Assembly (NCBI GenBank): GCA_964247135.1
Contig: CAXTTL010000138.1
Location: 1 to 12,846, forward strand
Source of the DNA: an uncultured Deinococcales bacterium
GTDB taxonomy: Bacteria; Deinococcota; Deinococci; Deinococcales; JAAFIG01
Direction: 5' to 3'
DNA length: 12,846 nucleotides
This document shows positions 3 through 12,846 of the stretch, in pieces. Below the pieces are notes generated by a model. It ran no database searches. It was not told the DNA's origin and was given only the letters and a program-made list of their open reading frames with translations. Position 1 is the first letter of the stretch. Every line of letters starts with the position of its first letter. A program made the translations under genes and the position numbers.

Positions 3-1646
3 GAGGGTCTGGTGGTCGGCGTTGACCTGGAAAGCAAAAATCCACTCGAGCGTGCGATGTTAAGTTTGTATCAAACCGGCACCAAAAGCCTGGTCAAATT
101 GAGCCTCGAGCGTTTGGAATCGATCACGATTTTGGATGCGGTGGCGGCGGGCGATCTCGAGTTTGCGCTGCAAAATGCCAAACGCGACGAAGACCGATCC
201 TCGGCGCTGCTGCGGCTCTCCGAGGGTGAGCACGATCTGTCCGTTTCTTATATTGCCCCAGCCCCAGCTTGGCGCGTTTCGTACCGCGTGATTGCCGAAG
301 AAATTGAGGGTACTGAACCCGATGCTCGAGAAATTTTCGTGCAGGGTTGGGGTCTTTTTGACAACACGCTCGAGGAAGACCTTGACGGTGTGGAACTGAG
401 TTTGATGGCGGGAATGCCCGTCTCGTTTCGTTATTCCCTGTTCGCGCCCAACACGCCCGAACGTCCCTTGGTCGAAGATCAAGAGCGCACGGTCGGCGCT
501 CCGATCCAGTTTGCAAGCATGGAATACATGGAAGAGGCGAGCGTCGGATCGATGGGTGGCATGGCACGAGCCAAAAAGTCAATGGCTCCAGCCATGGCTG
601 CCGCCCCAGCACCGCTCTCGAGCCAGATGATGCAAAGTTCAAAACCCGTATCACAAGGTGAGTCTCGAGGCGCATTGTTCGCCTACCGGGTGGCGCATCC
701 GGTCAGCGTGGCGAGGGGTCAATCGGGCATGGTCTTGCTGATGTCGGCAAAACTCAAAGGCAAACGCGAACTCTTATACAACGGCGCGAAAAATCCCGAA
801 AATCCGGTCGCCAGCTTGCGCTTTGAGAACGGCTCTGGTTTTACCCTCGAGCGAGGACCCGTCACGGTGCTCGAGGCGCAAGCTTCACAATCCGCCGAGT
901 ACGCGGGTGAGGCGGTGCTCGAGTTCACACCGTCCGGCGCGGAAGTGATCGTGGCGTTTGCGGTCGAACTCGGTGTCAAGGTCACCGAACAACAAACCTG
1001 GGAAACCCATTTAAACCGTATCAGTGTGTCTCAAGGTTATTTGCTGGTTCAAGAATATCAAACCTGCCGAACTCGTTTTGAGATCATTTCGCAACTCGAG
1101 AAATCCGTGGTCGTGACGCTCGAGCGGGATCGCTTGAACGGTTACGATTTTTTTGAAACCGTTCAGCCCGAATCGCTGACCATGACCCTGGCGCGTTGGA
1201 AACTTGATGTTGGCAGCAAAGCCAAGCTCGGGTTTGTGGTGCAAGAACGGATGCTCCAGAGCCGTTACGAGCAAGTCAGAAACATCACGTTTGAAAGTTT
1301 GAGCGAATATTTGAAGAACAGGTTTTTGGACTCGAGCACCTTTGAGGCGTTGAAAAGCATCCGCAATCTGTACGCCCAGATTGAAAGCACAAACTCAAAA
1401 ATCAGTTCGCTCGAGGCTGAGCGTGAACGCATTTTTGCGCGTCAAACCCAAATTCAAGGTAACCTCTCGCCGCTGGCTCGAGACGGCGACGAGGGGCGAC
1501 TGCGTTCCAAATTGGTCAAAGAACTCGACGAGTCCGAAAACCGTTTGAAAACGCTCGAGAAAGAATCCGAAAACCTGCGGACACTGGCTGCAACTCTCGA
1601 GCAAGACGCCGCCAAGGCGATAGCGGCGCTCGAGCCTAAAACTTAA
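3..1646 (+). CDS. DUF4139-domain protein with C-terminal coiled coil (5'-truncated)
   Basis: The frame is open from base 3 (GAG GGT CTG GTG GTC...), so the true start lies upstream of the window. Motifs SYIAPAPAWRVSYR, WGLFDNTLEEDLDGVELSLMAGMP, FAYRVAHPVSVARGQSGMV and FTLERGPVTV..YAGE match the DUF4139 pattern. An Ala/Pro/Met-rich linker and a heptad-rich C-terminus follow. Confidence 0.75.
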   Translation, partial: EGLVVGVDLESKNPLERAMLSLYQTGTKSLVKLSLERLESITILDAVAAGDLEFALQNAKRDEDRSSALLRLSEGEHDLSVSYIAPAPAWRVSYRVIAEEIEGTEPDAREIFVQGWGLFDNTLEEDLDGVELSLMAGMPVSFRYSLFAPNTPERPLVEDQERTVGAPIQFASMEYMEEASVGSMGGMARAKKSMAPAMAAAPAPLSSQMMQSSKPVSQGESRGALFAYRVAHPVSVARGQSGMVLLMSAKLKGKRELLYNGAKNPENPVASLRFENGSGFTLERGPVTVLEAQASQSAEYAGEAVLEFTPSGAEVIVAFAVELGVKVTEQQTWETHLNRISVSQGYLLVQEYQTCRTRFEIISQLEKSVVVTLERDRLNGYDFFETVQPESLTMTLARWKLDVGSKAKLGFVVQERMLQSRYEQVRNITFESLSEYLKNRFLDSSTFEALKSIRNLYAQIESTNSKISSLEAERERIFARQTQIQGNLSPLARDGDEGRLRSKLVKELDESENRLKTLEKESENLRTLAATLEQDAAKAIAALEPKT

Positions 1647-1678
1647 AATCACAATCATTTGTCTGGGTTTGTTCGGGT

Positions 1679-1684
1679 TAAACT
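1679..1684 (+). promoter_or_regulatory. -10 box TAAACT, probable leaderless promoter
   Basis: TAAACT lies 6 nt before GTG 1691 with no Shine-Dalgarno. It overlaps the palindrome AACTCGAGTT (1681-1690). Confidence 0.6.
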
Positions 1685-1690
1685 CGAGTT

Positions 1691-3022
1691 GTGCTTTTGT
1701 ATGCAAAATTATTAAATTCAATCTCTTTCGAGCTTGATGGCGAAATCTTCCAGGGGCTTCAAGGTCGTCCTCTCGAGCTGATGGTGTTCTTGGCATCTCG
1801 AGGCGATGCCAAAACCTGGACTGCACTCGAGGCTATAGGATTTGTTCACGACGATCTCGAGGCGGCAGAACTCGAGCCGTTGCGTGAATTCTTGGTGGTC
1901 GAAAACGATTCTTTGCGGCTCGAGGCAGGGTCAGATGTGCAAGATTATTTGAATGCTGGCGCTAACCTTCGGACGCTCACCAGTTTGCGCGGCGAGTTTG
2001 CGCCGGGTTTAAACTCAAGTCATCCAGCCTTTCAAACTTGGCTGACGCGCGAACGATTTGAACTGCACAAGGTTTTCTTGAAAGCCTTGCTCGAGAATTC
2101 GGCGGGATTGTTTGAAACTGGACGCACCGAAGAGGCGAGCAAAAACCTCGAGTTTGTGATGCGCGAATGCCAGAAATACAATGACTTCAATCCTGAATTT
2201 GGGGCGGAAATCTCGCTCGAGTTGGCGCGGTTTGAATGGCGTTTAAACCATCCCGAAAAAAGCGCCGAACACCTTCAAAGGGCGCTGCCAAATTTGCACG
2301 GCATTGCTGCCGATCATGTCAAAGCCAACCTTGCCAGTGCGCTGATTCGCGTTGGAAAACCCAAAGCAGTTATCGCGCTGCTCGAGCCAATGCCAAACCA
2401 CCTCGAAGCCAAAGGTTGGGCGCTGGTCCATCTGGCAAATGCGTACCGAATTCTAGACGACCTCGAGAACAGCCTCAAGTTTGCGCTCGACGCGTTTCAG
2501 ATTTCAAACCTCGAGCAAGACGGTTTTATGGCTGTGGCGGCGTTGACGGTACAAGGCGAGGCGTTGCTCGAGAAAGCGATGCTCGAGGCAGTGAATCCAA
2601 AAGAGGCAGTCATCGCCTTTGGTAAAGCCGTCGGAATATCAGAAGTCTTGGGCGAGGATGCCAGCGCTGGCGTGCTGGCGGGTTTGGGACATGCCCACGC
2701 GGTCTGGGGCAGTAAAAACAAGGCGCTCGAGGTTTCAGAAAAAGCCTTCAAACGCGCCCGAGCCGCCAAAGATGCCGCCAACACCACCCGAGCGCTTTTG
2801 GCGCTTTATGCCACCACCAAAATTGGCAGTTTTGCCCGCAACGCCCTGACCGAAGCCAGGATTGCCGGTCACAAACCGTATGAATTGCTGGCGTTGCTCG
2901 AGGTGAGCGAAAAAGAAAAAGATTTGGCTTTGGCGCAAGACGCCCTCGAATTGGCGCGTTCAATCGGTTCAAAACGCCTGCAAGCTCGGGCTTCAAATCT
3001 GGTTCATCAGCTCGAGACTTGA
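1691..3022 (+). CDS. TPR-repeat protein with degenerate N-terminal SARP/BTAD-like region
   Basis: 443 aa. The N-terminus (KLLNSISFELDG...PLELMVFLA) and LRGEFAPGL...FQTWLTRERFEL resemble SARP/BTAD regulators. The C-terminal two thirds are Ala/Leu-rich TPR-like helices (e.g. GWALVHLANAYRILDDLENSLKFALDAF, AGVLAGLGHAHAVWGSKNKALEVSEKAF). Confidence 0.65.
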   Translation: MLLYAKLLNSISFELDGEIFQGLQGRPLELMVFLASRGDAKTWTALEAIGFVHDDLEAAELEPLREFLVVENDSLRLEAGSDVQDYLNAGANLRTLTSLRGEFAPGLNSSHPAFQTWLTRERFELHKVFLKALLENSAGLFETGRTEEASKNLEFVMRECQKYNDFNPEFGAEISLELARFEWRLNHPEKSAEHLQRALPNLHGIAADHVKANLASALIRVGKPKAVIALLEPMPNHLEAKGWALVHLANAYRILDDLENSLKFALDAFQISNLEQDGFMAVAALTVQGEALLEKAMLEAVNPKEAVIAFGKAVGISEVLGEDASAGVLAGLGHAHAVWGSKNKALEVSEKAFKRARAAKDAANTTRALLALYATTKIGSFARNALTEARIAGHKPYELLALLEVSEKEKDLALAQDALELARSIGSKRLQARASNLVHQLET

Positions 3023-3654
3023 GCTTTCTCGAGTAACTCCTGGTACATTTTTCTAACGCGAATCGCAACGGGTGCAGCCAGCACTTTTTGTATCATCTCG
3101 AGGCTCGGGTTTGGGTCGTAAAACCAATCGAAAGTATCAACCACACTCAAATACGCAACTTCACTCGGCTCGAACTTGACCGATTCGCCAACTTGAACCT
3201 CACCCTCTTTGATCACCCGACAGTACAAGCCTGGTCGGCGGGCTTGCTTAAATTTTTTGACAAACCCCGCGTCGCCCATTCGCGCCGCCAAGGTGCTACA
3301 CGGAATTCTGGACGCCGAAACCTCGAGCGAGACCGTGCCAATATTTAGGCGGTCACCGATATTGAACTTGGCGCTCTCAAGGTCGCTGACCGTCAGGTTT
3401 TCACCAAACACTCCAGGCTCGAGGTTCGTTTGCAATTGCTGCGACCACCAGGCGTAATCGGTTGTGCCGTAAACATAAACGGCTTGGTCTGGACCGCCGT
3501 GGTGCTTTTTGTTTTGCACCACATCAGCCTCGAGTCCGAGTTTTCCAACGCGGACTGGGTGGTTAACGGGCGTTTTGAAAATTCCCGTTTTGGTGTTGTG
3601 ATGTCCCACCTCGAGCGGTTGTGAACTGCCGATGTTGACAGAAATCAGTTTCAT
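3007..3654 (-). CDS. MOSC-domain protein (YiiM-like, with C-terminal 3-alpha region)
   Basis: Motifs TGIFK, GLEADV..KKHHGGPDQAVYVY, PGVFGENLT, RIPC (conserved Cys) and GLYCRVIKEGEVQVG are hallmarks of the YiiM/MOSC family. Confidence 0.92.
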   Translation of the reverse strand: MKLISVNIGSSQPLEVGHHNTKTGIFKTPVNHPVRVGKLGLEADVVQNKKHHGGPDQAVYVYGTTDYAWWSQQLQTNLEPGVFGENLTVSDLESAKFNIGDRLNIGTVSLEVSASRIPCSTLAARMGDAGFVKKFKQARRPGLYCRVIKEGEVQVGESVKFEPSEVAYLSVVDTFDWFYDPNPSLEMIQKVLAAPVAIRVRKMYQELLEKAQVSS

Positions 3655-3657
3655 GGA

Positions 3658-4071
3658 TCAGTCTATCTCGAGCGACCGAATCACAACTGGAATCTCGCGC
3701 ACCTGATCGAGTAACTCCCAAGCCCGAGCCTGTTGATGTTGAACGTCCAAAATAAGGTAGGGCACGTCCCAGGTGGCTTTCTCGAGATCGGTTTTGGACG
3801 GTACGGCTTCATGCCTTGGGTGCGAATGGTAAATCCCGATCAACTCGAGGTGTTGATTTTTGATGGCTTTGAGGGCGCGAATCGCGCCGCTCGGCTCTGC
3901 GACGTAAAAACTGGTCGCATCGCTGGCAACATTGACCAATGGAAACACCGCACTGACCTGCCCGCTCGCAATACCCGCCAGAAAACCCACGCATTCGTTC
4001 GGTAAAGCCTTGCGTGCCAATTCAAACAAATGCGTCAGCAATATTTTCGGAAGCTCGAGTTTTGCGCTCAC
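3658..4071 (-). CDS. JAB/MPN+ (Mov34, M67 family) metalloprotease
   Basis: Complete JAMM motif E-x(n)-HSH-x7-S-x2-D: PNECVGFLAG ... IYHSHPRHEAVPSKTD. Its stop lies 3 nt upstream of the MOSC start, consistent with an operon. Confidence 0.93.
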   Translation of the reverse strand: MSAKLELPKILLTHLFELARKALPNECVGFLAGIASGQVSAVFPLVNVASDATSFYVAEPSGAIRALKAIKNQHLELIGIYHSHPRHEAVPSKTDLEKATWDVPYLILDVQHQQARAWELLDQVREIPVVIRSLEID

Positions 4072-4163
4072 AATTCAGTCTGACACGGGTGCAGGTTCCA
4101 ATGGCATCAATTTCGGCTCGGGTTCAATTGAAACTTCTTTGCTTCACTTTTGACCCCTCGGCT

Positions 4164-4172
4164 TGGTACACT
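4164..4172 (+). promoter_or_regulatory. Extended -10 promoter (TGgTACACT) of the peptide ABC operon
   Basis: TG-n-TACACT at 4164-4172, with a possible -35 TTCACT at 4143-4148 (18 nt spacer). It lies about 60 nt upstream of the SD-led ATG 4236. Confidence 0.5.
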
Positions 4173-4223
4173 TTGCCCACTCACCACGAAAATTTGCTCA
4201 CTCGAGCAAAGTGGTGCATTGTA

Positions 4224-4231
4224 AGAGGAGG
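4224..4231 (+). promoter_or_regulatory. Shine-Dalgarno of the SBP gene
   Basis: AGAGGAGG ends 4 nt before ATG 4236. Confidence 0.8.
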
Positions 4232-4235
4232 TTGT

Positions 4236-5834
4236 ATGAAGCACTGGAAGATTGCTTTTGTCACACTCGCGTTAGGGGCGGCGGCGCTGATGGTCGCCAC
4301 AGCTCAGTCAAGCGCGAAAACCCTCGTTTTTGCCCAATCGGGCGACGCGATCAACTTTGAACCAGGTGATCGTGAGGACGGCAACACGCTTCAAGCGCAA
4401 CAACCCATTTATGAACGCCTGCTCGGTTTTGAATCTGGTACGACCAAACTCGTGCCCTCATTAGCCAAAAGCTGGCGTGCCAACAAAACCGCGACCGAGT
4501 GGACGTTTAGTTTGCGTTCTGGCGTGAAGTTCCATGACGGCACGGGTTTTGATGCCGATGCGGTCAAATTCAACGTCATGCGTTGGTGGGACCCCAAGTT
4601 CGAGTTTGGTTACCGCGATAAGGGCAAGCTCTGGGAACCGATGGGCGATTTGCTTAACGGTTATAAAGGCGATGCTGGCGCAATCATCAAAGACGTGCAA
4701 GTGGTTAACAAGTACCAGATCAAATTTGTTCTGACCCAACCGTTTGCCGCTTTTGACGCGGTCATGGCTTCGATTTATTTCGAGATTGCCAGTCCAAGCG
4801 CCATCAAAAAAGCTGGAGCCGATTACGGCACACCCGCCAGCGTGGGCACCATCGCCGGCACGGGTCCATTTATCTTGAAGGATTGGAAACCAGGCGACAG
4901 AATCGTTTACAGCAAAAACCCAAATTACTGGGGCAAAACCACCACCAATGTCGATCAGCTCGTGTTCCGAACCATCAAGGACACCAGCGCCCGTTTTGCC
5001 GAGCTTCGTGCCGGAACGGTTGACTTGACAGTGAACCTCAACCCAGACGATTACGCCGCCATCAAAGCCGACCCCAAACTGAAAGCCATTTTGCGCCCAA
5101 GCTTTAACGTCGGTTATGTGGCGTTCAACACGCAACTCAAACCCTTCGACAACGTCAAGGTTCGTCAGGCGGTGGCGCAAGCCGTCAACAAAAAAGACAT
5201 CGTGGCGAGCTTCTGGAAGGGTTTGGGCGTGACCGACGGTTCGTTCTTGCCCTCAACCTTTTCTGATTTCAGATCACCCAAAGTCAAAGATTATGTCTAC
5301 AACCCAGAAGCCGCCAAGAAAGCCTTGGCAGACGCCGGATATCCGAACGGCTTTGAAGCCGATTTCTGGTACATGCCCGTGTCCAGACCGTACTTCCCAA
5401 CGCCAAAACCGATTGCCGAAGCCATCGCCGCAGACCTTGCCCAAATCGGCATCAAGCTCAACCTCAAAACCGAGGATTGGGGCACCTACCTCGAGGACCG
5501 CAAGAAGAACAAATTCCCAATGTTCTTGCTCGGCTGGACCGGCGATTACGGCGATGCCGACAACTTCTACACCCCTCACTTCGGACCTGGCGCGGTGGAT
5601 GATGTGAACTACCGCAATCAAAAAGTCTTTGATCTTCTCGAGAAAGCCCAAAAGCTCACCAGCCGCAAAGCCAAAGTGCCAATTTACCAACAAGTCGAAG
5701 AAATTCTTTTCAACGACGTGGTGCGTTTGCCCTTCGTTCACAGCCAACCGCTCGAGGCGAGCAAAGCAGAAGTGGACGGTTACAAGCCAAGCCCACTGGG
5801 TGAAATCAACTTTGCTGACATCAGCATCAAGTAA
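4236..5834 (+). CDS. Peptide/nickel ABC transporter substrate-binding protein (SBP family 5, DppA-like)
   Basis: Start moved from 4014 to ATG 4236 because of the strong SD and the signal peptide MKHWKIAFVTLALGAAALMVATAQ. Family motifs: LAKSW..TEWTFSLRSGVKFHDGT, GTGPFILKDW, NPNYWG, PFDNVKVRQAVAQAVN, GWTGDYGDADNF. 532 aa. Confidence 0.95.
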   Translation: MKHWKIAFVTLALGAAALMVATAQSSAKTLVFAQSGDAINFEPGDREDGNTLQAQQPIYERLLGFESGTTKLVPSLAKSWRANKTATEWTFSLRSGVKFHDGTGFDADAVKFNVMRWWDPKFEFGYRDKGKLWEPMGDLLNGYKGDAGAIIKDVQVVNKYQIKFVLTQPFAAFDAVMASIYFEIASPSAIKKAGADYGTPASVGTIAGTGPFILKDWKPGDRIVYSKNPNYWGKTTTNVDQLVFRTIKDTSARFAELRAGTVDLTVNLNPDDYAAIKADPKLKAILRPSFNVGYVAFNTQLKPFDNVKVRQAVAQAVNKKDIVASFWKGLGVTDGSFLPSTFSDFRSPKVKDYVYNPEAAKKALADAGYPNGFEADFWYMPVSRPYFPTPKPIAEAIAADLAQIGIKLNLKTEDWGTYLEDRKKNKFPMFLLGWTGDYGDADNFYTPHFGPGAVDDVNYRNQKVFDLLEKAQKLTSRKAKVPIYQQVEEILFNDVVRLPFVHSQPLEASKAEVDGYKPSPLGEINFADISIK

Positions 5835-5841
5835 TTTGTTT

Positions 5842-5871
5842 TCTGGGGGAAGGATTTTTCCTTCTCCCAGA
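5842..5871 (+). terminator. Stem-loop after the SBP gene (terminator or mRNA-stabilising hairpin)
   Basis: TCTGGGGGAAGGA-TTTT-TCCTTCTCCCAGA forms a 13-bp stem with one G-U pair, 7 nt after the stop. The U-tract (TTCTATT) is only weak. Confidence 0.7.
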
Positions 5872-5913
5872 TTCTATTGAGCCTCGGGATTTGAATGGCT
5901 CGAGCGGGTTTTT

Positions 5914-5972
5914 GTAGGTTGCGCCCCGCGCACCAATGGTACGTGAAAGAGGCTGCGCAAGGCGCAGCCTGG
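5914..5972. repeat. Inverted pair of GTAG-type REP-like palindromes (REPIN-like doublet)
   Basis: GTAGGTTGCGCCCCGCGCACC (5914-5934) faces AGGCTGCGC-AAG-GCGCAGCCT(GG) (5950-5972). The reverse complement of the second, CCAGGCTGCGCCTTGCGCAGCC, resembles the first. Confidence 0.55.
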
Positions 5973-6038
5973 CAACGACCTCATTTTTGTGGCGCTTATT
6001 TTGAATTTCACAAATCCTCGAGAATTCACAAGGACAAA

Positions 6039-7097
6039 ATGTTTGTTTACACCATGCGTCGCCTGATCGCCATTGTGCCTGTCTTAATCGGGATTTCGAT
6101 TTTGGTTTTCATGTTCATTCACCTGATCCCTGGCGATGCCGCCACGATTTTGTTGGGCGAACGCGGCACGCCTGAGCGTCTGGCAGAGGTTCGTGAGCAA
6201 CTGGGTTTGAACAAACCCTGGGTGGTGAATCCTGCGGGTTTGACCAAAAACGGAATTGTCGGTTTTTTTGATTCGCAGTATTTTAATTTTGTCGGCAAGC
6301 TCTTGCAGGGCGACCTTGGCGTCAGTTTATTAAAAAATATTCCGGTCAAAACCGAACTCGTACAGCGCTGGCCTGGAACAATTGAACTCTCCATTGGTGC
6401 AATGATCCTCTCGACGTTTCTGGGCATTCCAATCGGCATTTTGGCAGCCGTGCGGCGCAATTCAATCGTTGATAATCTTTCCATGACAGTTGCGCTGGTC
6501 GGCGTGTCGATGCCGATTTTCTGGCTCGGTCTGCTGCTGATCTACCTTTTTGCCGTCGAACTGCACTGGTTGCCGCCAGGTCATCGTCTCGGCACCGACC
6601 TTTCGATCTCATTTAAACCGATCACCAACTTGCTGGTTTTGGACGGCATTTTGCGCGGACAACTCAATGTCACCCTGCAAGCTTTACAACACCTGATTTT
6701 GCCCTCGGTGGCACTCGCCACCATTCCCACCGCGATCATCGCCCGCATGACGAGAAGCGCCATGCTCGAGACACTGAATCAAGATTATGTTCGTACCGCC
6801 AGGGCAAAAGGTTTGTCGCAGCGCACCGTGGTTTACAAACACGCGCTGCGTAACGCGCTGCTGCCGGTCGCCACCGTGATCGGTTTGCAGGTCGGTGCGC
6901 TCTTGGGCGGCGCCATCCTGACCGAAACGGTCTTCAGTTGGGAAGGCATCGGCTTGTGGATTTACGAGGGCATCTCGACCAGGGATTACCCGATTGTGCA
7001 GGCGGGCGTGATTTTCGTGGCTTTCATTTTTACGCTTGTCAACACCATTGTGGACATCAGTTACGCCCTGCTTGACCCCAGAATTCAGTACAGATAA
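6039..7097 (+). CDS. Peptide ABC transporter permease (DppB/OppB-like)
   Basis: Start moved from 5895 to ATG 6039 (AAGGA SD; family-typical N-terminus MFVYTMRRLIAIVPVLIG..HLIPGD). Contains the EAA-loop region DYVRTARAKGL and KHALRNALLP, ETVFSWEGIG, RDYPIVQ, LDPRI. Confidence 0.95.
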   Translation: MFVYTMRRLIAIVPVLIGISILVFMFIHLIPGDAATILLGERGTPERLAEVREQLGLNKPWVVNPAGLTKNGIVGFFDSQYFNFVGKLLQGDLGVSLLKNIPVKTELVQRWPGTIELSIGAMILSTFLGIPIGILAAVRRNSIVDNLSMTVALVGVSMPIFWLGLLLIYLFAVELHWLPPGHRLGTDLSISFKPITNLLVLDGILRGQLNVTLQALQHLILPSVALATIPTAIIARMTRSAMLETLNQDYVRTARAKGLSQRTVVYKHALRNALLPVATVIGLQVGALLGGAILTETVFSWEGIGLWIYEGISTRDYPIVQAGVIFVAFIFTLVNTIVDISYALLDPRIQYR

Positions 7098-7106
7098 GGA
7101 CACCAT

Positions 7107-8006
7107 GTGACCACCGCAACCGCACCATCAGAAAGAAAAGCCCAACTCGAGACACCGAGTGCCCAGATTTGGCGGCGCTTTCGCGCCTCGAGTCCAGGAA
7201 AAGTGGGCGGCATCATTGTGCTGGTGTTTATTGTGCTGGCGCTGCTCGCACCAATCTTAAAACCCTATGATGCCTTCAAAGACCGCTCGTACCTGGACCG
7301 TTTAACCCCGCCCAGCATCACGCACATTTTCGGCACGGACAACCTCGGGCGCGACGTGGCAACACGGGTTTTGCACGGTTCGAGAATCTCGTTGCAGGTC
7401 GGTTTGATTTCGGTGTCATTGGCGGCGGTGGTCGGAACGCTGCTCGGTTTGGTCGCCGGTTTTTTCCGTGGTCGGGTGGATGCTGGCATCGATTGGGGCA
7501 CGAACATTCTGCTGGCATTTCCTGGCACGCTGCTTGCCATTGCCATCGTCGCCGTGCGCGGACCTGGTTTGACCAACACCATGCTCGCCATTTCGGTCAC
7601 GCAAATTCCAGTCTACGTTCGGATTGCGCGGTCGATGGTTTACAGCCTGCGCGAACAAGATTTCATTCACGCCGCCGAAGCGCTCGGCGCCTCGAGTTGG
7701 CGGCAAATGTTGGTTCATGTGCTGCCCAACGGTTTAAGCCCGCTGATCGTTCAGAGCACCCTGACCATCGGCACGGCGACGCTCGAGGCGGCGGCACTGG
7801 GTTTTCTGGGTTTGGGGGCGCAACCCCCACAACCCGAATGGGGTACGATGATCGCCGATGCCTTCCAGATTGGCGTGGCAACCACCGCGCCGTGGACGAT
7901 GATTTTTCCTGGTTTGGCGATTTTGCTGACCGTGCTCGGGTTTAATTTGCTGGGTGACGGTTTGCGCGATGCGCTCGATCCAAAATCGCAACGCGCCGCC
8001 AAGTAG
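7107..8006 (+). CDS. Peptide ABC transporter permease (DppC/OppC-like)
   Basis: Motifs HIFGTDNLGRD, GSRISL, FIHAAEALGAS (EAA loop), HVLPN, LGFLGLGAQPPQPEWG and FNLLGDGLRDALDP. Confidence 0.95.
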   Translation: MTTATAPSERKAQLETPSAQIWRRFRASSPGKVGGIIVLVFIVLALLAPILKPYDAFKDRSYLDRLTPPSITHIFGTDNLGRDVATRVLHGSRISLQVGLISVSLAAVVGTLLGLVAGFFRGRVDAGIDWGTNILLAFPGTLLAIAIVAVRGPGLTNTMLAISVTQIPVYVRIARSMVYSLREQDFIHAAEALGASSWRQMLVHVLPNGLSPLIVQSTLTIGTATLEAAALGFLGLGAQPPQPEWGTMIADAFQIGVATTAPWTMIFPGLAILLTVLGFNLLGDGLRDALDPKSQRAAK

Positions 8007-8028
8007 GGGCGAGGCACGCCTCGCCCCT
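8003..8028. repeat. GTAG-type REP-like palindrome filling a convergent junction; probable bidirectional terminator
   Basis: GT-AGGGGCGAGGC-AC-GCCTCGCCCCT is a perfect 11-bp inverted repeat. It spans from the dppC-like stop (TAG 8004-8006) to the stop of the convergent gene (8029-8031). Confidence 0.7.
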
Positions 8029-9135
8029 TTAACGCTCGCCCTGCAATGCCTTCCAAGGATTCGTGAGCGGACTCGAGCCTTTGACATAACCTGTCAACTC
8101 CATGTACCCCACCCCCCTGGTCGTTCCCGTCACATTAACTGCGCCCTCATAATAATTAAAACCCGTGGTCGCTCGAGCTTCAACCTCTTGATTGTCGGTC
8201 ACGGCGCGAATCGTTAAAATCGTGCCATCCTCGAGTCGCAGGCTCCATTTGGTCGGGTACTTGCCACCCGTGGCGGGTGAAGTCCAAGTGTCCCAGGGTT
8301 GAAACCTGAAATTGCGCAGTTCGGTGCTTTTGCCCTCGCCGCTGGTGATGCTGATAAAGCGGTCGCTCGGTTCGTTTTTGGCGTTTTTCACAATGTAAAT
8401 CATCATGTCGCGCCCATCCTCGAGTTGCAGGCTCATCCAGTCCCAGTTCGGATTGATGCTGGCGCTGCCATCGCCCGTTGGCGTTCCCCATTGATGGTCA
8501 AACCAGACGATGCCCGTGACAGGTTCGCCATTTAATGTTCCCGTGACTTTGAGCCGTGTGGCGCTGTAATAATACATTCGTCCAGTCTCGAGATTGCCGC
8601 TCCAACCAGGACCATGCACGACTTCGGGACGCAGCGGCTCGAGGTCGAGTTGAAGTGTATCCTGTCCGTTGTTGCTCGAGTTGACGGTGTAATGCCCATT
8701 TTGCTCGCGGGTCATGCGCCAATCGCCCAAATGCACGTCCATGCGGGTTTCGCTGGCGGCGGCATCGGTCACCCGAATCTTGGGGTTTTTGACAAACGGT
8801 AAGGTGCTACGTTCGCTGCTCGAGAAACTGCCAGAGGTTTTGTCCAGAAGGCTGTAATGTCCAAAGTAAAAGGCTTGCGGTAAAATGCTGGCTGCCGAAA
8901 TTAAACCGATTTTGCTGTCCTCGGGAATAAAAACTTGAAAAATCGCGGCGGCAAAACCTTTTTTGGCGCCGGACCCCGTCTCGAGATGACCGTTCATGTA
9001 CCACCACTCGACGGCGCTGCGATGGGCGCCCTGGTCGGCAATCGGGTCGGGTTTGCGCTCAATAAATCCCTCGAGTTGCCTGACTGGAGCACAGGACATG
9101 AGCAGCATTAACAGCAGCAAAACGCTTCTTTTCAT
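8029..9135 (-). CDS. Lipocalin-like / AttH-CrtC family (predicted secreted hydrolase) lipoprotein
   Basis: Lipoprotein-type signal MKRSVLLLLMLLMS-C. Family motifs: EWWYMNGHL, YYYSATRL, WFDHQWG, WDWMSLQL, WTSPATGGKYP, YYEG and GYMELTGY. Confidence 0.85.
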   Translation of the reverse strand: MKRSVLLLLMLLMSCAPVRQLEGFIERKPDPIADQGAHRSAVEWWYMNGHLETGSGAKKGFAAAIFQVFIPEDSKIGLISAASILPQAFYFGHYSLLDKTSGSFSSSERSTLPFVKNPKIRVTDAAASETRMDVHLGDWRMTREQNGHYTVNSSNNGQDTLQLDLEPLRPEVVHGPGWSGNLETGRMYYYSATRLKVTGTLNGEPVTGIVWFDHQWGTPTGDGSASINPNWDWMSLQLEDGRDMMIYIVKNAKNEPSDRFISITSGEGKSTELRNFRFQPWDTWTSPATGGKYPTKWSLRLEDGTILTIRAVTDNQEVEARATTGFNYYEGAVNVTGTTRGVGYMELTGYVKGSSPLTNPWKALQGER

Positions 9136-9141
9136 GGTTTG

Positions 9142-9147
9142 AGTTTA
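9142..9147 (-). promoter_or_regulatory. -10 box TAAACT, probable leaderless promoter
   Basis: The minus strand reads TAAACT-caaacc-ATG(9135): 6 nt spacing and no SD. Confidence 0.6.
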
Positions 9148-9213
9148 TCCAAAATTCGCAAAGTCATTCGTACTCGAGGCTGGGATTTTTGTTGGTCAGC
9201 GGTTTGAATCGTG

Positions 9214-9219
9214 TAAACT
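9214..9219 (+). promoter_or_regulatory. -10 box TAAACT, probable leaderless promoter
   Basis: TAAACT-gtgaggc-GTG(9227): 7 nt spacing. Confidence 0.55.
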
Positions 9220-9226
9220 GTGAGGC

Positions 9227-10699
9227 GTGAAAGCGTTACTTTTCGCCATTGTTTTGGCGCTCGGATTCTCGAGTGCGCTGGCTGGAAGTTACACGGTTCA
9301 GCCCAAGGACACGTTGTACAGCATTGCGAAAAAATTTAACCTCAGTGTTGAGGAATTGCAAAAACGCAATCAATTGACGGGCAACAGCGTCAACGTTGGG
9401 CAGGTTTTGATGGTGCCCGACCCGCAAAAAGTTCATGTGGTGGCTGCCAAAGAGACTTTGTTTTCAATCGCCAAAAAATATGGCGTTTCGGTTCAGGCGA
9501 TGCTCGAGGCAAACAAACTGAACACGCCTGAACTTAAAATTGGGCAGCGTTTGCTGATTCCAAACTCGATTGTGCCTCGATCTGGCATTCAAGCCTCGAG
9601 CAATCCTGCAAAGCCTCCAGCCTCGAGTCCACCTTCAAAACCAAGCTCGGGCACGCCCCCAAAACTTCCCACCCTCGCCACCGCGCCCAAACCGCAAATC
9701 TCGAGCACGGTTGAGAAGCCAAGCTCGAGCGGAGTAGTCAAACCACCAAAACCTGAAGTGGCGCCTACCAAACCTGAAATTGTAGCGGTGAAACCAAATT
9801 CGGTGGTTGCGCCGCCAATGCCAAACTCGGGTGTGACCAATCCTGAGGTTGCGGTTGCGCCACCAACAAATGCCTCGAGCCTGCCAGCCAGACCGAGCAC
9901 GCCAGCCACGCTGAAACCTCCGACCACTGGCAATGTCAAACCCTCAACCTCGAGCGCCAACACGGGTACGGTGCTGCCCAATGCTCGAGGGTCGGATGCG
10001 CCCATTGTCGTGCCAGTTTTAAAAACCGCGCCGATGCCAAACCTCAGCACGCCGCCAACCGCGCCAGTCATCACCAGTACGGTGGTTGATACAGGCACCA
10101 GCCTCCCAGTCGAACAACCACTGCCCGAAGCCAGCAGCGACGCACCAGAACTGTTTTATACGGTGCTGGCGGGAGAAACGCTGTACCGCATCGCGCTACG
10201 TTACAAAGTCAGTATTGAAAGCATCCGCGCCGCCAACGACCTGACCAGCGACGCGATCAGTGCTGGACAACGCATCAAGATTCCGATGGCTGCCACGGCT
10301 GCGATAGCGCCACCCAGCAAAAGCCCACAAGGGATTTCTGAAATTTCCCAGCGGTATTTGGGTGTGACCTACCGTTACGGCGGCACAGACCCGAGCGCTG
10401 GACTCGATTGCAGCGGTTTTGTGCAAATCGTTTTTGCCGAACTGGGTTTAAAGTTGCCGCGCACCAGCGCCCTGCAATTTCAGGCGGGCATCGAGGTCGC
10501 TCGAGAAAACTTGCAGGAGGGCGATCTGGTGTTTTTTGACACCACCGGGCGCGGGGTCAGTCACGTTGGAATTTACCTCAGAGACAATCAATTTATCCAC
10601 GCCGCCAGCAATCCTGGCAAAGTCACGATCTCGAGCCTGACCGAAAAATACTGGCAACCCAAATACCTCGGGGCGCGTCGGGTGCTGACCGATGACTGA
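9227..10699 (+). CDS. LysM x3 + NlpC/P60 (C40) peptidoglycan endopeptidase
   Basis: Signal peptide; LysM repeats [32 protein letters not shown] and [16 protein letters not shown]; a long Pro/Ser/Thr linker; and NlpC/P60 motifs YRYGG..GLDCSG, GDLVFF, SHVGIY and FIHA. Confidence 0.95.
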
Positions 10700-11246
10700 A
10701 TGGAGCATTTCAACCGAGCGTTTAAAGTTACGTCAATTCAAAAAATCCGATCTGGCGGCGTTGTTGGCATACCGTAACGATCCCGAAGTTTCTCGCTATC
10801 AGGGTTGGGGTTCAAGTTACTCGAGCGAACAAGCCAGCCAATTCATCGCCCAGATGTCCACCCGAGAGGCGGGGCAAATCGACTGGACGCAACTTGCCGT
10901 TCAGTTGAAATCCACAGGCGCAACCATTGGCGACGTTGCCCTCAACAGCCTCGAGTTTGAACCCAAGGGCGCCATGATCGGTTACACGCTGGCTCGAGAA
11001 CACTGGGGTCAAGGCTACGCGATTGAAGCCGTGAACGCCACCTTAAAACACTGTTTTGAAGACCTCCACATGCACCGCATTCGCGCCAACTGCGACACCA
11101 GAAATGTTGCCTCATGGCGTTTGCTCGAGAAAATCGGTTTCAGGCGCGAGGCACATTTTATTGAAAGTTACTTTGAGCATGAAAGCTGGTGTGACGAGTT
11201 TGAATACGCACTGCTCGAGCGTGAATGGTTTGGGTTGAAACGGTGA
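10692..11246 (+). CDS. GNAT family N-acetyltransferase (RimJ/RimL-like)
   Basis: Motifs [25 protein letters not shown] and [17 protein letters not shown]. The 8-nt overlap (ATGACTGA) with the upstream stop implies translational coupling. Confidence 0.92.
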
Positions 11247-11248
11247 TG

Positions 11249-11275
11249 GTTGGGGCGCATGGCAATGCGTCCTGC
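11249..11275. repeat. Degenerate REP-like palindrome / hairpin after the GNAT gene
   Basis: GTT-GGGGCGCAT-GGCA-ATGCGTCCT-GC forms a 9-bp stem with two G-U pairs. It resembles a decayed GTAGGGGCGCAT...ATGCGCCCCTAC element. Confidence 0.5.
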
Positions 11276-11322
11276 CGGAAATTCAAATTGGATGGTTCGA
11301 GGTTTGATATTCTTTTGCAAGC

Positions 11323-11331
11323 TGTTAAACT
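11323..11331 (+). promoter_or_regulatory. Extended -10 box TGtTAAACT, probable leaderless promoter
   Basis: TG-n-TAAACT followed by 6 nt (tccccc) and then GTG 11338; no SD. Confidence 0.62.
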
Positions 11332-11337
11332 TCCCCC

Positions 11338-12171
11338 GTGACTTGGAAACCTTACGAAGAAGTGTACGGCACCAAACATACGGTAGTGGGCGATGTCCGC
11401 GTTTGGCAGAAAGTCTCGGGTTCTGGTTTGGCAGCGCGGAACATTCTGGTTTACTTGCCGCCAAATTACGATTCCCAAACTCGAGATTACCCAGTGCTGT
11501 ACATGCACGATGGACAAAATATTTTTGATGACCTGACCGCCTATGCTGGCGAGTGGGGTGTGGATGAAACGGCGCAAAGTTTGGCGGCTCGAGGTTTGCC
11601 GTGCATTGTTGTGGGCATTCCCAACGGGGGAGAGGCGCGTCTGGACGAGTACGGACCCTGGGAGGACGAACGCTTAAAGCAGCATTCGGCGACTGGACAG
11701 GGTGGGCGGGCGCTCGAGTACCTGACATTTTTGCTCGGCAACGTCAAACCGCTGGTGGACTCCAGCTTCCGCACCTCAAGGCTGAGAAGTCAAACGGGTA
11801 TCTCAGGCTCGTCGATGGGCGGTCTGGTGAGCCTCTGGGCGGCACTCGAAGCCCGCGAGACGTTCGGGTTTTGCGCGGCGCTCTCCTCGAGCTTCTGGCT
11901 GGGTGGAAAACTCGAGGCATTTGTGGCGGCTCGGGTGGCGCCAGATTTAAGAATTTATTTGGATGTGGGCGGCAAGGAAAGCAGCCTCAAAGCCCAGCAA
12001 AACGCTTACCTCAAATCCAACCGCAAAATGCGCGACCTGCTCGAGTCTCAAGGCTACGATCTGGTGTACCTCGAGGATGCCAACGGCATTCACAACGAAG
12101 CCGATTGGCGGCGGCGCTTTCCTGCGGCGCTCGAATGGTTTTTAGACCCAAGCAAACGCCCCAAGTTGTAA
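11338..12171 (+). CDS. Alpha/beta hydrolase (putative esterase family)
   Basis: Motifs VYLPPNY...YPVLYMHDGQNIFD, nucleophile elbow GSSMGG, IYLDVGGKE and catalytic His in HNEADW. Confidence 0.92.
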   Translation: MTWKPYEEVYGTKHTVVGDVRVWQKVSGSGLAARNILVYLPPNYDSQTRDYPVLYMHDGQNIFDDLTAYAGEWGVDETAQSLAARGLPCIVVGIPNGGEARLDEYGPWEDERLKQHSATGQGGRALEYLTFLLGNVKPLVDSSFRTSRLRSQTGISGSSMGGLVSLWAALEARETFGFCAALSSSFWLGGKLEAFVAARVAPDLRIYLDVGGKESSLKAQQNAYLKSNRKMRDLLESQGYDLVYLEDANGIHNEADWRRRFPAALEWFLDPSKRPKL

Positions 12172-12181
12172 GGAGTTTTCT

Positions 12182-12846
12182 GTGAGTGTCATCAGCTTTT
12201 TGCAAGATTTAATCCGTATCCAAAGCCTGCCCAAACAAGAGTCCGCCATCGCCGCTCGGGTCTTGATTGAATACCGCAAACTCGGTTTTGACGAAGCCTG
12301 GAAAGACCAGTACGGCAACGTTTTTGGTTTGGTGCGCGGAATTGAAGCTGGCGCGGGCTGGTTGCTGTTAACGCATTTGGACCATGTCGATGTGGGCGAT
12401 CAGGCGCAGTGGCAGCATCCGCCGTTTGCAGGAATTCTCGAGGACGGCGTTGTTCATGGACGCGGTGCGGTGGACATCAAAGGACCGCTGGCGGCGCAAA
12501 CCTACACGCTTTCCAGAATGCTCGAGCGCAAATTAAAACCCAAACGCAACGTGATCTTGTGCGTTCCCGCCGAGGAGGAAACCGGCGGCGAGGGCATCGC
12601 ATTTGTGACCGCCAACCTGCCCATCGAAACACCGCAACACGAAAAGCTCGAGATTGGGGCGTGCATCGTTGGCGAACCCAGTTCCAACCGTGTGATGCTC
12701 GGACACCGTGGCATTTGCCGCTCGACCGTGTCGTTTCACGGTCGCGCCCATCATGCAAGCTTGGCATTAAAGGACGAAAATCCGCATTACCAACTGGCGC
12801 AATTTTTGACGCGGCTGTACAACCTCAAGTTGCCCACCCATCCCAT
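12182..12846 (+). CDS. M20/M25/M40 family metallopeptidase (ArgE/DapE/YgeY-like), 3'-truncated
   Basis: Absent from the ORF track because it has no stop in the window. My translation from GTG 12182 (AGGAG SD overlapping the upstream TAA) is MSVISFLQDLIRIQS...LTHLDHV...HGRGAVDIKG...AEEETGG...VGEPS...GHRG...HGRAHHAS, which contains the M20 metal-binding motifs. Confidence 0.92.
   Translation, partial: MSVISFLQDLIRIQSLPKQESAIAARVLIEYRKLGFDEAWKDQYGNVFGLVRGIEAGAGWLLLTHLDHVDVGDQAQWQHPPFAGILEDGVVHGRGAVDIKGPLAAQTYTLSRMLERKLKPKRNVILCVPAEEETGGEGIAFVTANLPIETPQHEKLEIGACIVGEPSSNRVMLGHRGICRSTVSFHGRAHHASLALKDENPHYQLAQFLTRLYNLKLPTHP

Follow-up and report, generated by a model that had tools for sequence, protein, structure and literature searches.

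CTCGAG as a highly iterated palindrome in a family of Deinococcales, and its possible role in the recognition of self DNA

Four described systems come closest to the subject of this study, the abundance of the hexamer CTCGAG in a stretch of 12,846 nucleotides from an uncultured Deinococcales bacterium (contig CAXTTL010000138.1 of assembly GCA_964247135.1), hereafter called the window. The DNA uptake sequences (DUS) of Neisseriaceae and the uptake signal sequences (USS) of Pasteurellaceae are asymmetric words of 9-12 nt found about once per kb, and they reportedly bias the protein sequences of their hosts. In E. coli, the repair bias due to Dcm and Vsr is visible as an excess of CCWGG and a deficit of CTWGG. 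Restriction-modification (R-M) systems of the XhoI/PaeR7I type have CTCGAG as their target, and such targets are normally avoided. Finally, the highly iterated palindromes (HIPs) of cyanobacteria, HIP1 (GCGATCGC) and the alternative HIPs, are short GC-rich words, tens of times over-represented in genes and between them, which spread by substitution and not by insertion, are conserved between genomes above background, are low in foreign DNA and have a patchy, polyphyletic distribution, with related genomes lacking the motif (PMC5861425, PMC4390886, PMC13756078). A quasi-periodicity of 10-90 kb is described for HIP1 in the same articles, and HIP1 reportedly raises transformation efficiency, a role as uptake sequence having been proposed in PMC13756078. 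For about thirty years HIPs have posed a question without an answer, and all work on them has dealt with a single phylum.

The window is the entire contig C138 of a metagenome-assembled genome (MAG) of 386 contigs, referred to as G000. Exactly 94 CTCGAG copies were counted in it, in agreement with the figure of about 94, or one per 137 bp, given by an initial annotation. They form a dispersed array from 45 to 12652, strandless since the word is a palindrome, which covers the whole contig with a mean spacing of 137 bp. Dinucleotide-preserving shuffles of the window (n = 200) gave a mean of 2.59 copies (standard deviation 1.62, maximum 8) and none of the 200 reached 94. The resulting 36-fold excess is larger than the one initially claimed. 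Using longest open reading frame (ORF) calls, 92 sites are located in ORFs and 2 outside, with genes hit on both strands, and the sites in ORFs are read as CTC-GAG in 62 cases, xCT-CGA-G in 12 and xxC-TCG-AG in 18; the occurrence in all three frames and in both gene orientations was thus correctly described.

Five sites had been presented as intergenic, which is secure for two of them: 1683..1688, in the gap between ORF 3..1646 and ORF 1691..3022, and 9173..9178, in the gap between ORF 8029..9135 (minus strand) and ORF 9227..10699 (plus strand), lie outside all ORFs. The three others are found in the 5' ends of longest ORFs and are possibly intergenic. Site 4201..4206 belongs to the 5' extension of the longest solute-binding protein (SBP) ORF, which has later in-frame starts at 4236 and 4290, and sites 5899 and 6017 (5899..6022) to that of the longest OppB-like ORF, possibly upstream of its true start. 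In-frame start codons lie downstream of all three sites, and the matches of orthologues to the 400-aa OppB-like ORF begin at residues 25-52, that is after sites 5899 and 6017.

The excess extends to the whole of G000 (5,091,702 bp, 52.7% GC, 84% complete, largest contig of 115.6 kb), in which 33,925 CTCGAG sites were found, one per 150 bp. All 386 contigs carry the word, each with at least 2.56 sites per kb. It is by far the commonest hexamer of this genome, the runners-up being its own one-base extensions. Its observed over expected ratio (O/E) was 24.7 from base composition, 35 under a first-order Markov model and 14 under a second-order one, Markov orders above 2 being saturated by the motif itself. 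Crude gene calls, consisting of 4,297 non-overlapping ORFs of at least 120 aa that cover 87% of the genome, contained 28,822 sites (85% of the total, 6.5 per kb), as compared with 5,062 sites outside ORFs (7.6 per kb). The three frames were represented by 17,645 (CTC-GAG), 4,503 (xCT-CGA-G) and 6,674 (xxC-TCG-AG) sites. When synonymous codons were shuffled within genes, a procedure which preserves the protein sequence and the already distorted codon usage, 3,894 to 4,057 sites were obtained over 10 replicates (mean 3,987), so that the observed number is 7.2-fold higher. Shuffling whole codons (5 replicates) left about 1,670 sites (approximately 1,650-1,690). The excess hence survives a codon-shuffled null model, is genome-wide, family-wide and in part phylum-wide, and recurs in all 19 family genomes, assembled separately and in one case as a single contig; these are the three points, namely codon usage, restriction to the window and assembly artefact, on which the initial annotation had made its own claim depend.

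The enrichment belongs to the hexamer and not to its TCGA core, since the other 15 NTCGAN words have ordinary or low counts (121 to about 4,290 occurrences), TTCGAA and GTCGAC being strongly avoided. Words differing from CTCGAG by one mismatch are not depleted, with O/E values of 0.5-1.7 in eight of nine classes; CTAGAG, at 0.08, contains the avoided CTAG. In particular, the neighbours that deamination would produce are at normal level (TTCGAG 1.7, CTTGAG 1.2). The flanks are weak, with G at -1 in 39% of sites, C at +1 in 39% and A at -3 in 37%, and extension of the palindrome past six bases occurs at chance level. The core of the motif is therefore a 6-mer, as initially proposed. The 8-bp palindrome CCTCGAGG is under-used, its flank pair C...G standing at 1-2% of sites against about 4-5% estimated from the frequencies of the flanking bases.

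Other words are avoided in the same genome. The mirror word GAGCTC has 0 occurrences in G000 and CGATCG is nearly missing (47 sites, O/E 0.03). Among other palindromes, GGGCCC was counted once in the 5.09 Mb, CGGCCG 3 times, AGGCCT 4, CGTACG 5, GGATCC 7 and CCGCGG 11 times. GGCC has 380 sites (O/E 0.016), CTAG an O/E of 0.07, and the non-palindromic GGGCTC/GAGCCC 10 occurrences. This avoidance of palindromes far exceeds usual restriction avoidance.

Spacing between sites is near random in G000, close to a Poisson process with a coefficient of variation (CV) of 0.96. An even spacing was rejected accordingly, only gaps below 20 bp and of 400-800 bp being depleted. The sole periodicity among spacings of 4-69 bp is the 3-bp codon signal. 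A spacing of 6 bp was never seen, because it would create the absent word GAGCTC. The longest CTCGAG-free stretch of the genome measures 2,644 bp, and most of the longest gaps between sites correspond to islands of 27-40% GC in this 52.7% GC genome, which are probably recently acquired DNA. As for uptake sequences, CTCGAG is scarce in these putatively acquired islands and is shared through the family (18 of 18 relatives, see below). Site-free islands of 27-33% GC include C13:11892-14536, C70:14167-16418, C13:4757-6745 and C20:7985-9673, among others.

The difference between the whole-codon and the synonymous shuffles indicates that the amino-acid sequence itself is biased. In the G000 proteome, the O/E of Leu-Glu is 2.38 versus 1.01 for Glu-Leu, the only more skewed dipeptide being the rare Cys-Cys (235 occurrences), and that of Ser-Ser is 1.62. 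Leu-Glu is written CTCGAG in 17,645 of 22,991 cases (77%) versus 4.9% expected from codon usage elsewhere, and 74% of the Arg codons that follow an xCT codon are CGA, versus 13% otherwise. We compared 183 CTCGAG-encoded Leu-Glu positions, in 47 gene pairs of 51-57% identity, with their counterparts in four weakly or non-enriched Deinococcota. These outgroups encode Leu-Glu at 31 of the 183 positions, and mostly Leu-x or x-Glu instead; where an outgroup Leu-Glu is kept in G000, it is spelled CTCGAG in 31 of 39 cases. The CTC-GAG site at 7146..7151 (plus strand) of the window is one example: it is restricted to the window's genus and accompanies an amino-acid replacement, the Leu-Glu of this genus being Ile-Glu, Thr-Ala or Ile-Gln in other genera. 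The creation of sites is thus accompanied by amino-acid changes, towards Leu-Glu, Ser-Ser and x-Arg.

Conservation of the sites was analysed by comparing G000 with the sister species G005 over 209 kb of alignment at 85.6% identity. CTCGAG was conserved in 1,185 of 1,502 cases (78.9%) versus 92,702 of 203,244 (45.6%) for other hexamers, which ranks it first among the 2,402 hexamers that occur 60 times or more. Of the 159 sites outside ORFs, 116 were conserved (73%) versus 48.8% of controls. Five species comparisons over the window gave 67-89% site conservation versus 36-45%. Each of the six positions of the site diverges by 5.3-6.5%, identical bases in other places by 13-14%, so that protection extends over the entire hexamer and is not confined to one base. 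Sites private to one species are mostly one substitution, largely a transition, away from the orthologous sequence, and the changes by which sites differ affect positions 1/6, 2/5 and 3/4 about equally. Over 13 kb in the window's genus, which comprises six species, polarised changes amounted to 7 gain-like and 18 loss-like events. Comparison of the OppB, OppC and SBP genes across 13 family genomes gave a sharing of site positions of 63% within genus and 15% between genera, chance sharing being about 0.4%. The only position common to all 13 is a CTC-GAG (Leu-Glu) site at 7782..7787 (plus strand) of the window, in the OppC-like permease gene. As positions are mostly genus-specific, each lineage keeps making new sites. 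A mobile repeat, of the repetitive extragenic palindromic (REP) or miniature inverted-repeat transposable element (MITE) kind, was rejected on account of the weak flanks, of a commonest 12-mer found at 109 of the 33,925 sites and of the 85% of sites located in ORFs.

From these comparisons, sites arise singly by point substitution, both between genes and, in all frames and on both strands, within them. A hexamer-specific force acting at the DNA level creates them and slows their loss about three-fold; it overrides synonymous-codon and amino-acid preferences, is still active, and has acted independently in many lineages while being missing from close ones. On these grounds the initial view of CTCGAG as a HIP1-like palindrome outside cyanobacteria, made and kept by a genome-wide process on DNA, is borne out.

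The distribution of the trait was followed from the family outwards. The closest named matches to the OppB-like protein come from two assemblies labelled 'MAG: Deinococcales bacterium' (92% identical), which agrees with the placement in Deinococcota supposed by the initial annotation. Whole-genome counts show all 18 other genomes of the same Deinococcales family to be enriched, with 12,028 to 35,442 sites each, and GAGCTC is nearly absent in most of them. The 19 genomes of the family span five genera and include G011, a single-contig genome of 5.1 Mb. At orthologous loci of 14 family genomes the GC content ranges from 44 to 61% and all have 2.7-7.3 sites per kb, so that base composition is not the cause of the enrichment.

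CTCGAG was then counted in 364 Deinococcota genomes (among them the unpublished G327, on which no result rests). The trait is polyphyletic in this phylum and differs inside one genus. It has full strength in two of three species of a genus in another family, with 16,253 sites in the 1.9 Mb of G156 and 24,536 in the 3.5 Mb of G157, and the third species of this GTDB genus, G158, has 683 sites in 2.3 Mb. G156 and G157 are far apart from G158, with 68-69% nucleotide identity in a shared gene. One further genus is strongly enriched (G042, 13,562 sites in 3.8 Mb), and several genera of two other families have an intermediate density of 2-3.5 sites per kb, which genome samples confirmed as real. In a genus of 32 species (g9), CTCGAG and GAGCTC are equally frequent, at about 0.8 per kb each, and a genus of 111 species strongly avoids CTCGAG (26 to 1,372 sites per genome). 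The fraction of Leu-Glu written CTCGAG follows this scale: 0.90, 0.85 and 0.75 in the strong genomes G156, G157 and G042; 0.72, 0.67 and 0.45 in the intermediate G180, G193 and G265; 0.24 in G019 (0.22 expected) and 0.21 in G022 (0.27 expected); 0.04 in the non-enriched G158 and 0 in G020, where the word is avoided. The O/E of Leu-Glu reaches 2.9-4.0 in G156 and G157 versus 1.15 in G158, and G158 has Leu-Glu at 0 of 9 in-frame sites of the two others. The samples of G156 and G157 comprised just 8.1 and 4.6 kb, their whole-genome counts being those of the survey. A stretch of about 45 bp in G156 (L295:2714-2761) matches at least 14 contigs of G157 at 82-88% identity and could represent either a short repeat dispersed in the genome or a fragment of an RNA gene present in multiple copies.

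We searched these genomes for a gene that could be responsible. The window itself encodes no DNA-modification gene according to the Pfam annotation of its ORFs, as had been stated initially. The XhoI-family endonuclease (PF04555) was found in 0 of 19 family genomes and in 3 of 22 other genomes of the order, and an R-M system of the XhoI type was rejected as the cause. In G021, G031 and G033 the nuclease adjoins a methyltransferase, of the beta class in G021 and of the gamma class in G031. Used as query, the G031 methyltransferase had no match in G000 and its best match in the family was 27% identical; when the G031 and G021 enzymes were compared with G000 and the family loci sampled, similarity was only local, at 22-41%. 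An orthologue of the XhoI-linked methylases was consequently rejected as agent, G000 having no close relative of them. The G031 locus (G031:C1:1093829-1096226, loci L086 and L089-L091) is an XhoI-family R-M locus whose endonuclease frame is interrupted by one TGA and one TAG, in a genome where CTCGAG has a density of about 2 per kb. Vsr (PF03852) is present in 0 of 19 family genomes. On this search of the 19 family genomes, CTCGAG is neither the target of a classical XhoI-type restriction system nor the product of Vsr-type very-short-patch repair.

Many methyltransferase and R-M genes are nonetheless found in these genomes, and specificity is not readable from the sequence of a methyltransferase. 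PF00145, PF01555, PF02086 and PF02384 were searched in one genome for each of the five genera (four MAGs that are 84-94% complete and the single-contig G011, 94% complete), and PF07669 in 41 genomes, orthogroups being defined by at least 30% identity and 70% coverage. No orthogroup of these five Pfam families was common to the five genera, the maximal span being three of five, in that case through a generic C5 similarity; no C5 methylase was detected in G008 and no PF01555 match in G011. A conserved orphan methylase is not supported on this basis. One methylase is well conserved, a D12-class enzyme which is 83% identical between G000 and G011 and occurs in 7 of 19 family genomes. In G000 (C320:742-4293) this adenine methyltransferase stands beside a SacI-like endonuclease (RE_SacI, E 5.7e-7), the pair occupying 323-1432 and 1414-2253 of locus L132 on the minus strand, and copies of the methylase in 6 other family genomes are 76-93% identical. 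The pair is likely a GAGCTC R-M system, which fits the total absence of GAGCTC and not the excess of CTCGAG.

Stand-alone genes of the Vsr-fold family DUF559 are multi-copy in G000 and in 14 of its 18 family relatives. They also occur in 11 of 22 other genomes, including 5 of 6 sampled in the CTCGAG-avoiding genus, and are absent from the enriched G042 and G180; G000 lacks homologues of the weak DUF559-like ORFs seen in G156 and G157. DUF559 was rejected as agent, its presence not tracking the trait. The four G000 copies, of about 100-125 aa, are at C142:2027-2323, C61:2782-3150, C252:2754-3125 and C290:138-449, and relatives have up to 9. One G000 copy is inserted between two dihydropyrimidine-dehydrogenase-like genes, others stand beside Mfd and methylmalonyl-CoA mutase, and one copy is broken; in relatives these genes are often beside large Eco57I-like methylase proteins. 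RecC (PF04257) was found in 0 of 41 genomes (AddAB was not searched for), and a Chi-like hotspot was rejected on this count and because a palindrome cannot be oriented. ComEC and PilQ-type secretin genes are present in G000 and equally in the non-enriched G158, so that competence genes were rejected as discriminator.

Three viral contigs with an asymmetric CTCGAG bias were found among the matches listed: G365 (72.9 kb), G367 (17.0 kb) and G368 (36.9 kb). In the viral-contig loci sampled (L287-L294), CTCGAG is evenly spread over these three at 2.5-3.3 per kb, with 0, 4 and 1 copies of GAGCTC, and 54-78% of their Leu-Glu are spelled CTCGAG. Most other viral matches listed are high-GC contigs with equal GAGCTC. 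Comparison of the viral contigs with G000 (E 1e-10; 1e-15) revealed no similarity except five tblastx matches of G365 to contig C33. The biased contigs may be phages of enriched Deinococcota. A further viral contig, G364, carries 12 sites within its initial 2.4 kb, and the 13.4 kb that follow (26-31% GC) are free of them, a junction like those of the G000 islands.

Our leading reading is that CTCGAG is a highly iterated palindrome of this Deinococcales family, kept by a force on the whole hexamer whose agent would be self-recognition in DNA uptake or recombination, in line with the binding or uptake protein that the initial annotation gave as an alternative; taken with its agent, this reading is tentative and falls somewhat short of probable. 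A protein would recognise CTCGAG as a mark of 'own' DNA in natural transformation or homologous recombination, a step that we regard as possible rather than probable. DNA segments carrying the site would then be preferentially taken up or retained and would spread, the result being a molecular drive like that of uptake sequences and as now proposed for HIP1. The equal protection of the six bases suggests that a protein reads the site in full, and the presence of ComEC and a secretin makes uptake or recombination at least possible. Deinococcota include well-known naturally transformable bacteria, and together with the reported effect of HIP1 on transformation this led us to rank a drive through uptake or recombination first, ahead of repair coupled to methylation and then of nucleoid binding, part of the probability remaining unassigned to any of them.

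Several observations weigh against self-recognition in uptake or recombination. We found no uptake assay, receptor or trait-correlated gene, and with ComEC and secretin in the non-enriched G158 the presence of this machinery does not follow the trait. Known uptake sequences are longer and not palindromic, and a 6-mer carries little information. The near-Poisson spacing gives no strong sign of selection for regular coverage. The conservation of sites would be explained just as well by biased repair or by direct selection for whatever function, and a methyltransferase of an unrecognised family, or non-orthologous enzymes of the same specificity, may act instead. Moreover, the three viral contigs share the bias, which a pure uptake drive does not obviously predict; their bias would fit an intracellular process or mimicry, and is a mild argument.

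The next explanation, which we consider unlikely, is the methylation-coupled repair ratchet of Elhai's model for HIP1: an orphan methyltransferase would mark CTCGAG, and repair would convert near-cognates and restore mutated sites. It has the published precedent of HIPs, cognate orphan methyltransferases being described in PMC4390886 as co-occurring with HIP1 and alternative HIPs. R-M genes are abundant here, the extreme avoidance of about 20 other palindromes makes it clear that DNA-modification systems shape these genomes, Vsr-fold DUF559 genes are common in the family, and biased repair would also account for viral contigs sharing the bias of their host. The gene search nevertheless provided no methyltransferase orthogroup of the five Pfam families beyond three of five genera, no close counterpart of the XhoI-linked enzymes in G000, no Vsr, and a DUF559 family that does not follow the trait. 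Furthermore, such a ratchet does not sit well with one-mismatch neighbours that are undepleted, nor with a protection that is uniform over six positions and not focused on a methylated base, which deamination repair would not bring about. The orphan CTCGAG methyltransferase acting with Vsr or mismatch repair, put forward in the initial annotation, is for these reasons not supported.

Direct selection for a chromosome-level function, in which the sites would bind an abundant nucleoid, condensation or repair-scaffold protein, appears still less probable. Sites are conserved inside and outside genes and their six positions are equally constrained, as a protein-binding site predicts, and this is the interpretation of HIP1 conservation proposed by Xu et al. 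(PMC5861425). Against it stand a near-Poisson spacing without any periodicity between 4 and 69 bp other than that of codons, the congeneric G158 which does without the motif present in G156 and G157, and the lack of any known candidate protein.

A passive by-product of codon or dipeptide usage, or of the avoidance of other words, has very little probability: it finds some ground in high-GC relatives such as g9, where CTC and GAG codons are common and CTCGAG exceeds the expectation from base composition a few-fold with GAGCTC equally common, and is contradicted in the family by the synonymous shuffle, by the enrichment from 44% to 61% GC, by the higher density outside ORFs, by the 73% versus 49% conservation of non-coding sites and by the missing mirror word. 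An artefact of assembly, binning or library, such as XhoI sites of linkers or adaptors, might come to mind for a fragmented and incomplete MAG and is already contradicted by sites that respect the reading frame of conserved genes, recur at orthologous positions of other species and occur on every contig and in 19 assemblies, MAGs with different isolate prefixes among them, which leaves it a negligible probability.

A more general proposal, which we put forward as doubtful though worth stating, is that Deinococcota carry a switchable, hexamer-specific 'self-DNA watermark', that is a protein reading CTCGAG and biasing uptake, recombination or repair, gained or lost repeatedly. The putative reader would differ from classical restriction enzymes, from Vsr and from any conserved methyltransferase. 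If this is true, a fifth of a percent of all genome positions are rewritten by the watermark and the Leu-Glu of the proteome is doubled; one entire family shows it at full strength, as do one more genus and two of the three species of another, and elsewhere it is intermediate, absent or reversed. It would then offer natural on/off pairs for identifying the mechanism behind highly iterated palindromes.

The gene content of the window is ordinary: a TPR protein, a MOSC protein, a CrtC-like lipocalin protein, a LysM-NlpC/P60 peptidase, a GNAT acetyltransferase, an esterase, and an Opp-type ABC transporter made of a binding protein and two permeases (OppB-like and OppC-like). The 544-aa ORF at 12-1646 has no Pfam family at E <= 0.001 and the second-highest site density of the window (10.9 per kb). 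The three transporter genes (4014-8006) have 2.2-4.4 sites per kb versus 7.5-12.8 in most neighbouring genes, which may in part be due to the scarcity of Leu-Glu in membrane segments. This account is incomplete, as the gene of the binding protein (SBP_bac_5) also includes the longest CTCGAG-free stretch of the window, 1.29 kb at 4207..5489, one of only 47 gaps of at least 1.2 kb in the genome. On the practical side, the CTCGAG excess distorts k-mer signatures used for binning, codon-usage statistics and restriction-based methods, and may contribute to the fragmentation of these MAGs.

A full-text search of the literature, with supplements and subscription literature beyond its scope, yielded neither an account of enriched CTCGAG in Deinococcota nor a HIP-like word from any group other than cyanobacteria; given this scope an earlier mention of the enrichment may exist. 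Among the known systems, the R-M type of XhoI and PaeR7I shares the target CTCGAG and is represented in other Deinococcota (G021, G033 and G031). It differs in that the nuclease is missing from all 19 family genomes, the linked methyltransferases have no orthologue there, and CTCGAG is the commonest hexamer instead of being avoided. The Dcm/Vsr bias shares the idea of a sequence-specific repair enzyme that enriches its own target word. The CTCGAG effect is, however, orders of magnitude stronger, comes with no Vsr and no conserved C5 methylase, leaves TTCGAG and CTTGAG undepleted and protects all six positions.

Uptake sequences resemble CTCGAG more closely, as one short word in genome-wide excess across a whole family, accumulating by point mutation, rare in recent acquisitions and dense enough to bias proteins, in a genome equipped with competence genes. 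They differ by their asymmetry, by their length and by a density of about one per kb, as compared with a 6-bp palindrome once per 150 bp, and here competence genes do not separate enriched from non-enriched relatives.

The likeness to HIP1 and the alternative HIPs is the strongest. CTCGAG displays the four properties of HIPs, namely over-representation, presence in coding and non-coding DNA, spread by substitution and conservation between genomes, and adds to them a patchy, polyphyletic distribution with related genomes lacking the motif and a low occurrence in foreign DNA. It is not HIP1 itself, being a different word, of six bases and not eight, in a host that belongs to the Deinococcales and thus to another phylum. 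Its density of about 6,660 per Mb in G000 compares with 300-2,700 per Mb for HIP1 (PMC4390886, Table 2). No co-occurring cognate orphan methyltransferase was found for it in five Pfam families and five genera, and its one-base deviations are not biased to the end positions, as they are in HIP1. CTCGAG thus represents a second, independent example of HIPs, so far known only from cyanobacteria. It is a useful one, with a different word, a higher density, a measurable protein cost (Leu-Glu 2.4-fold) and no obvious cognate methylase, and the sharp contrasts between related genomes, such as 24,536 sites in G157 versus 683 in G158, make comparative gene-hunting and experimental tests directly possible.

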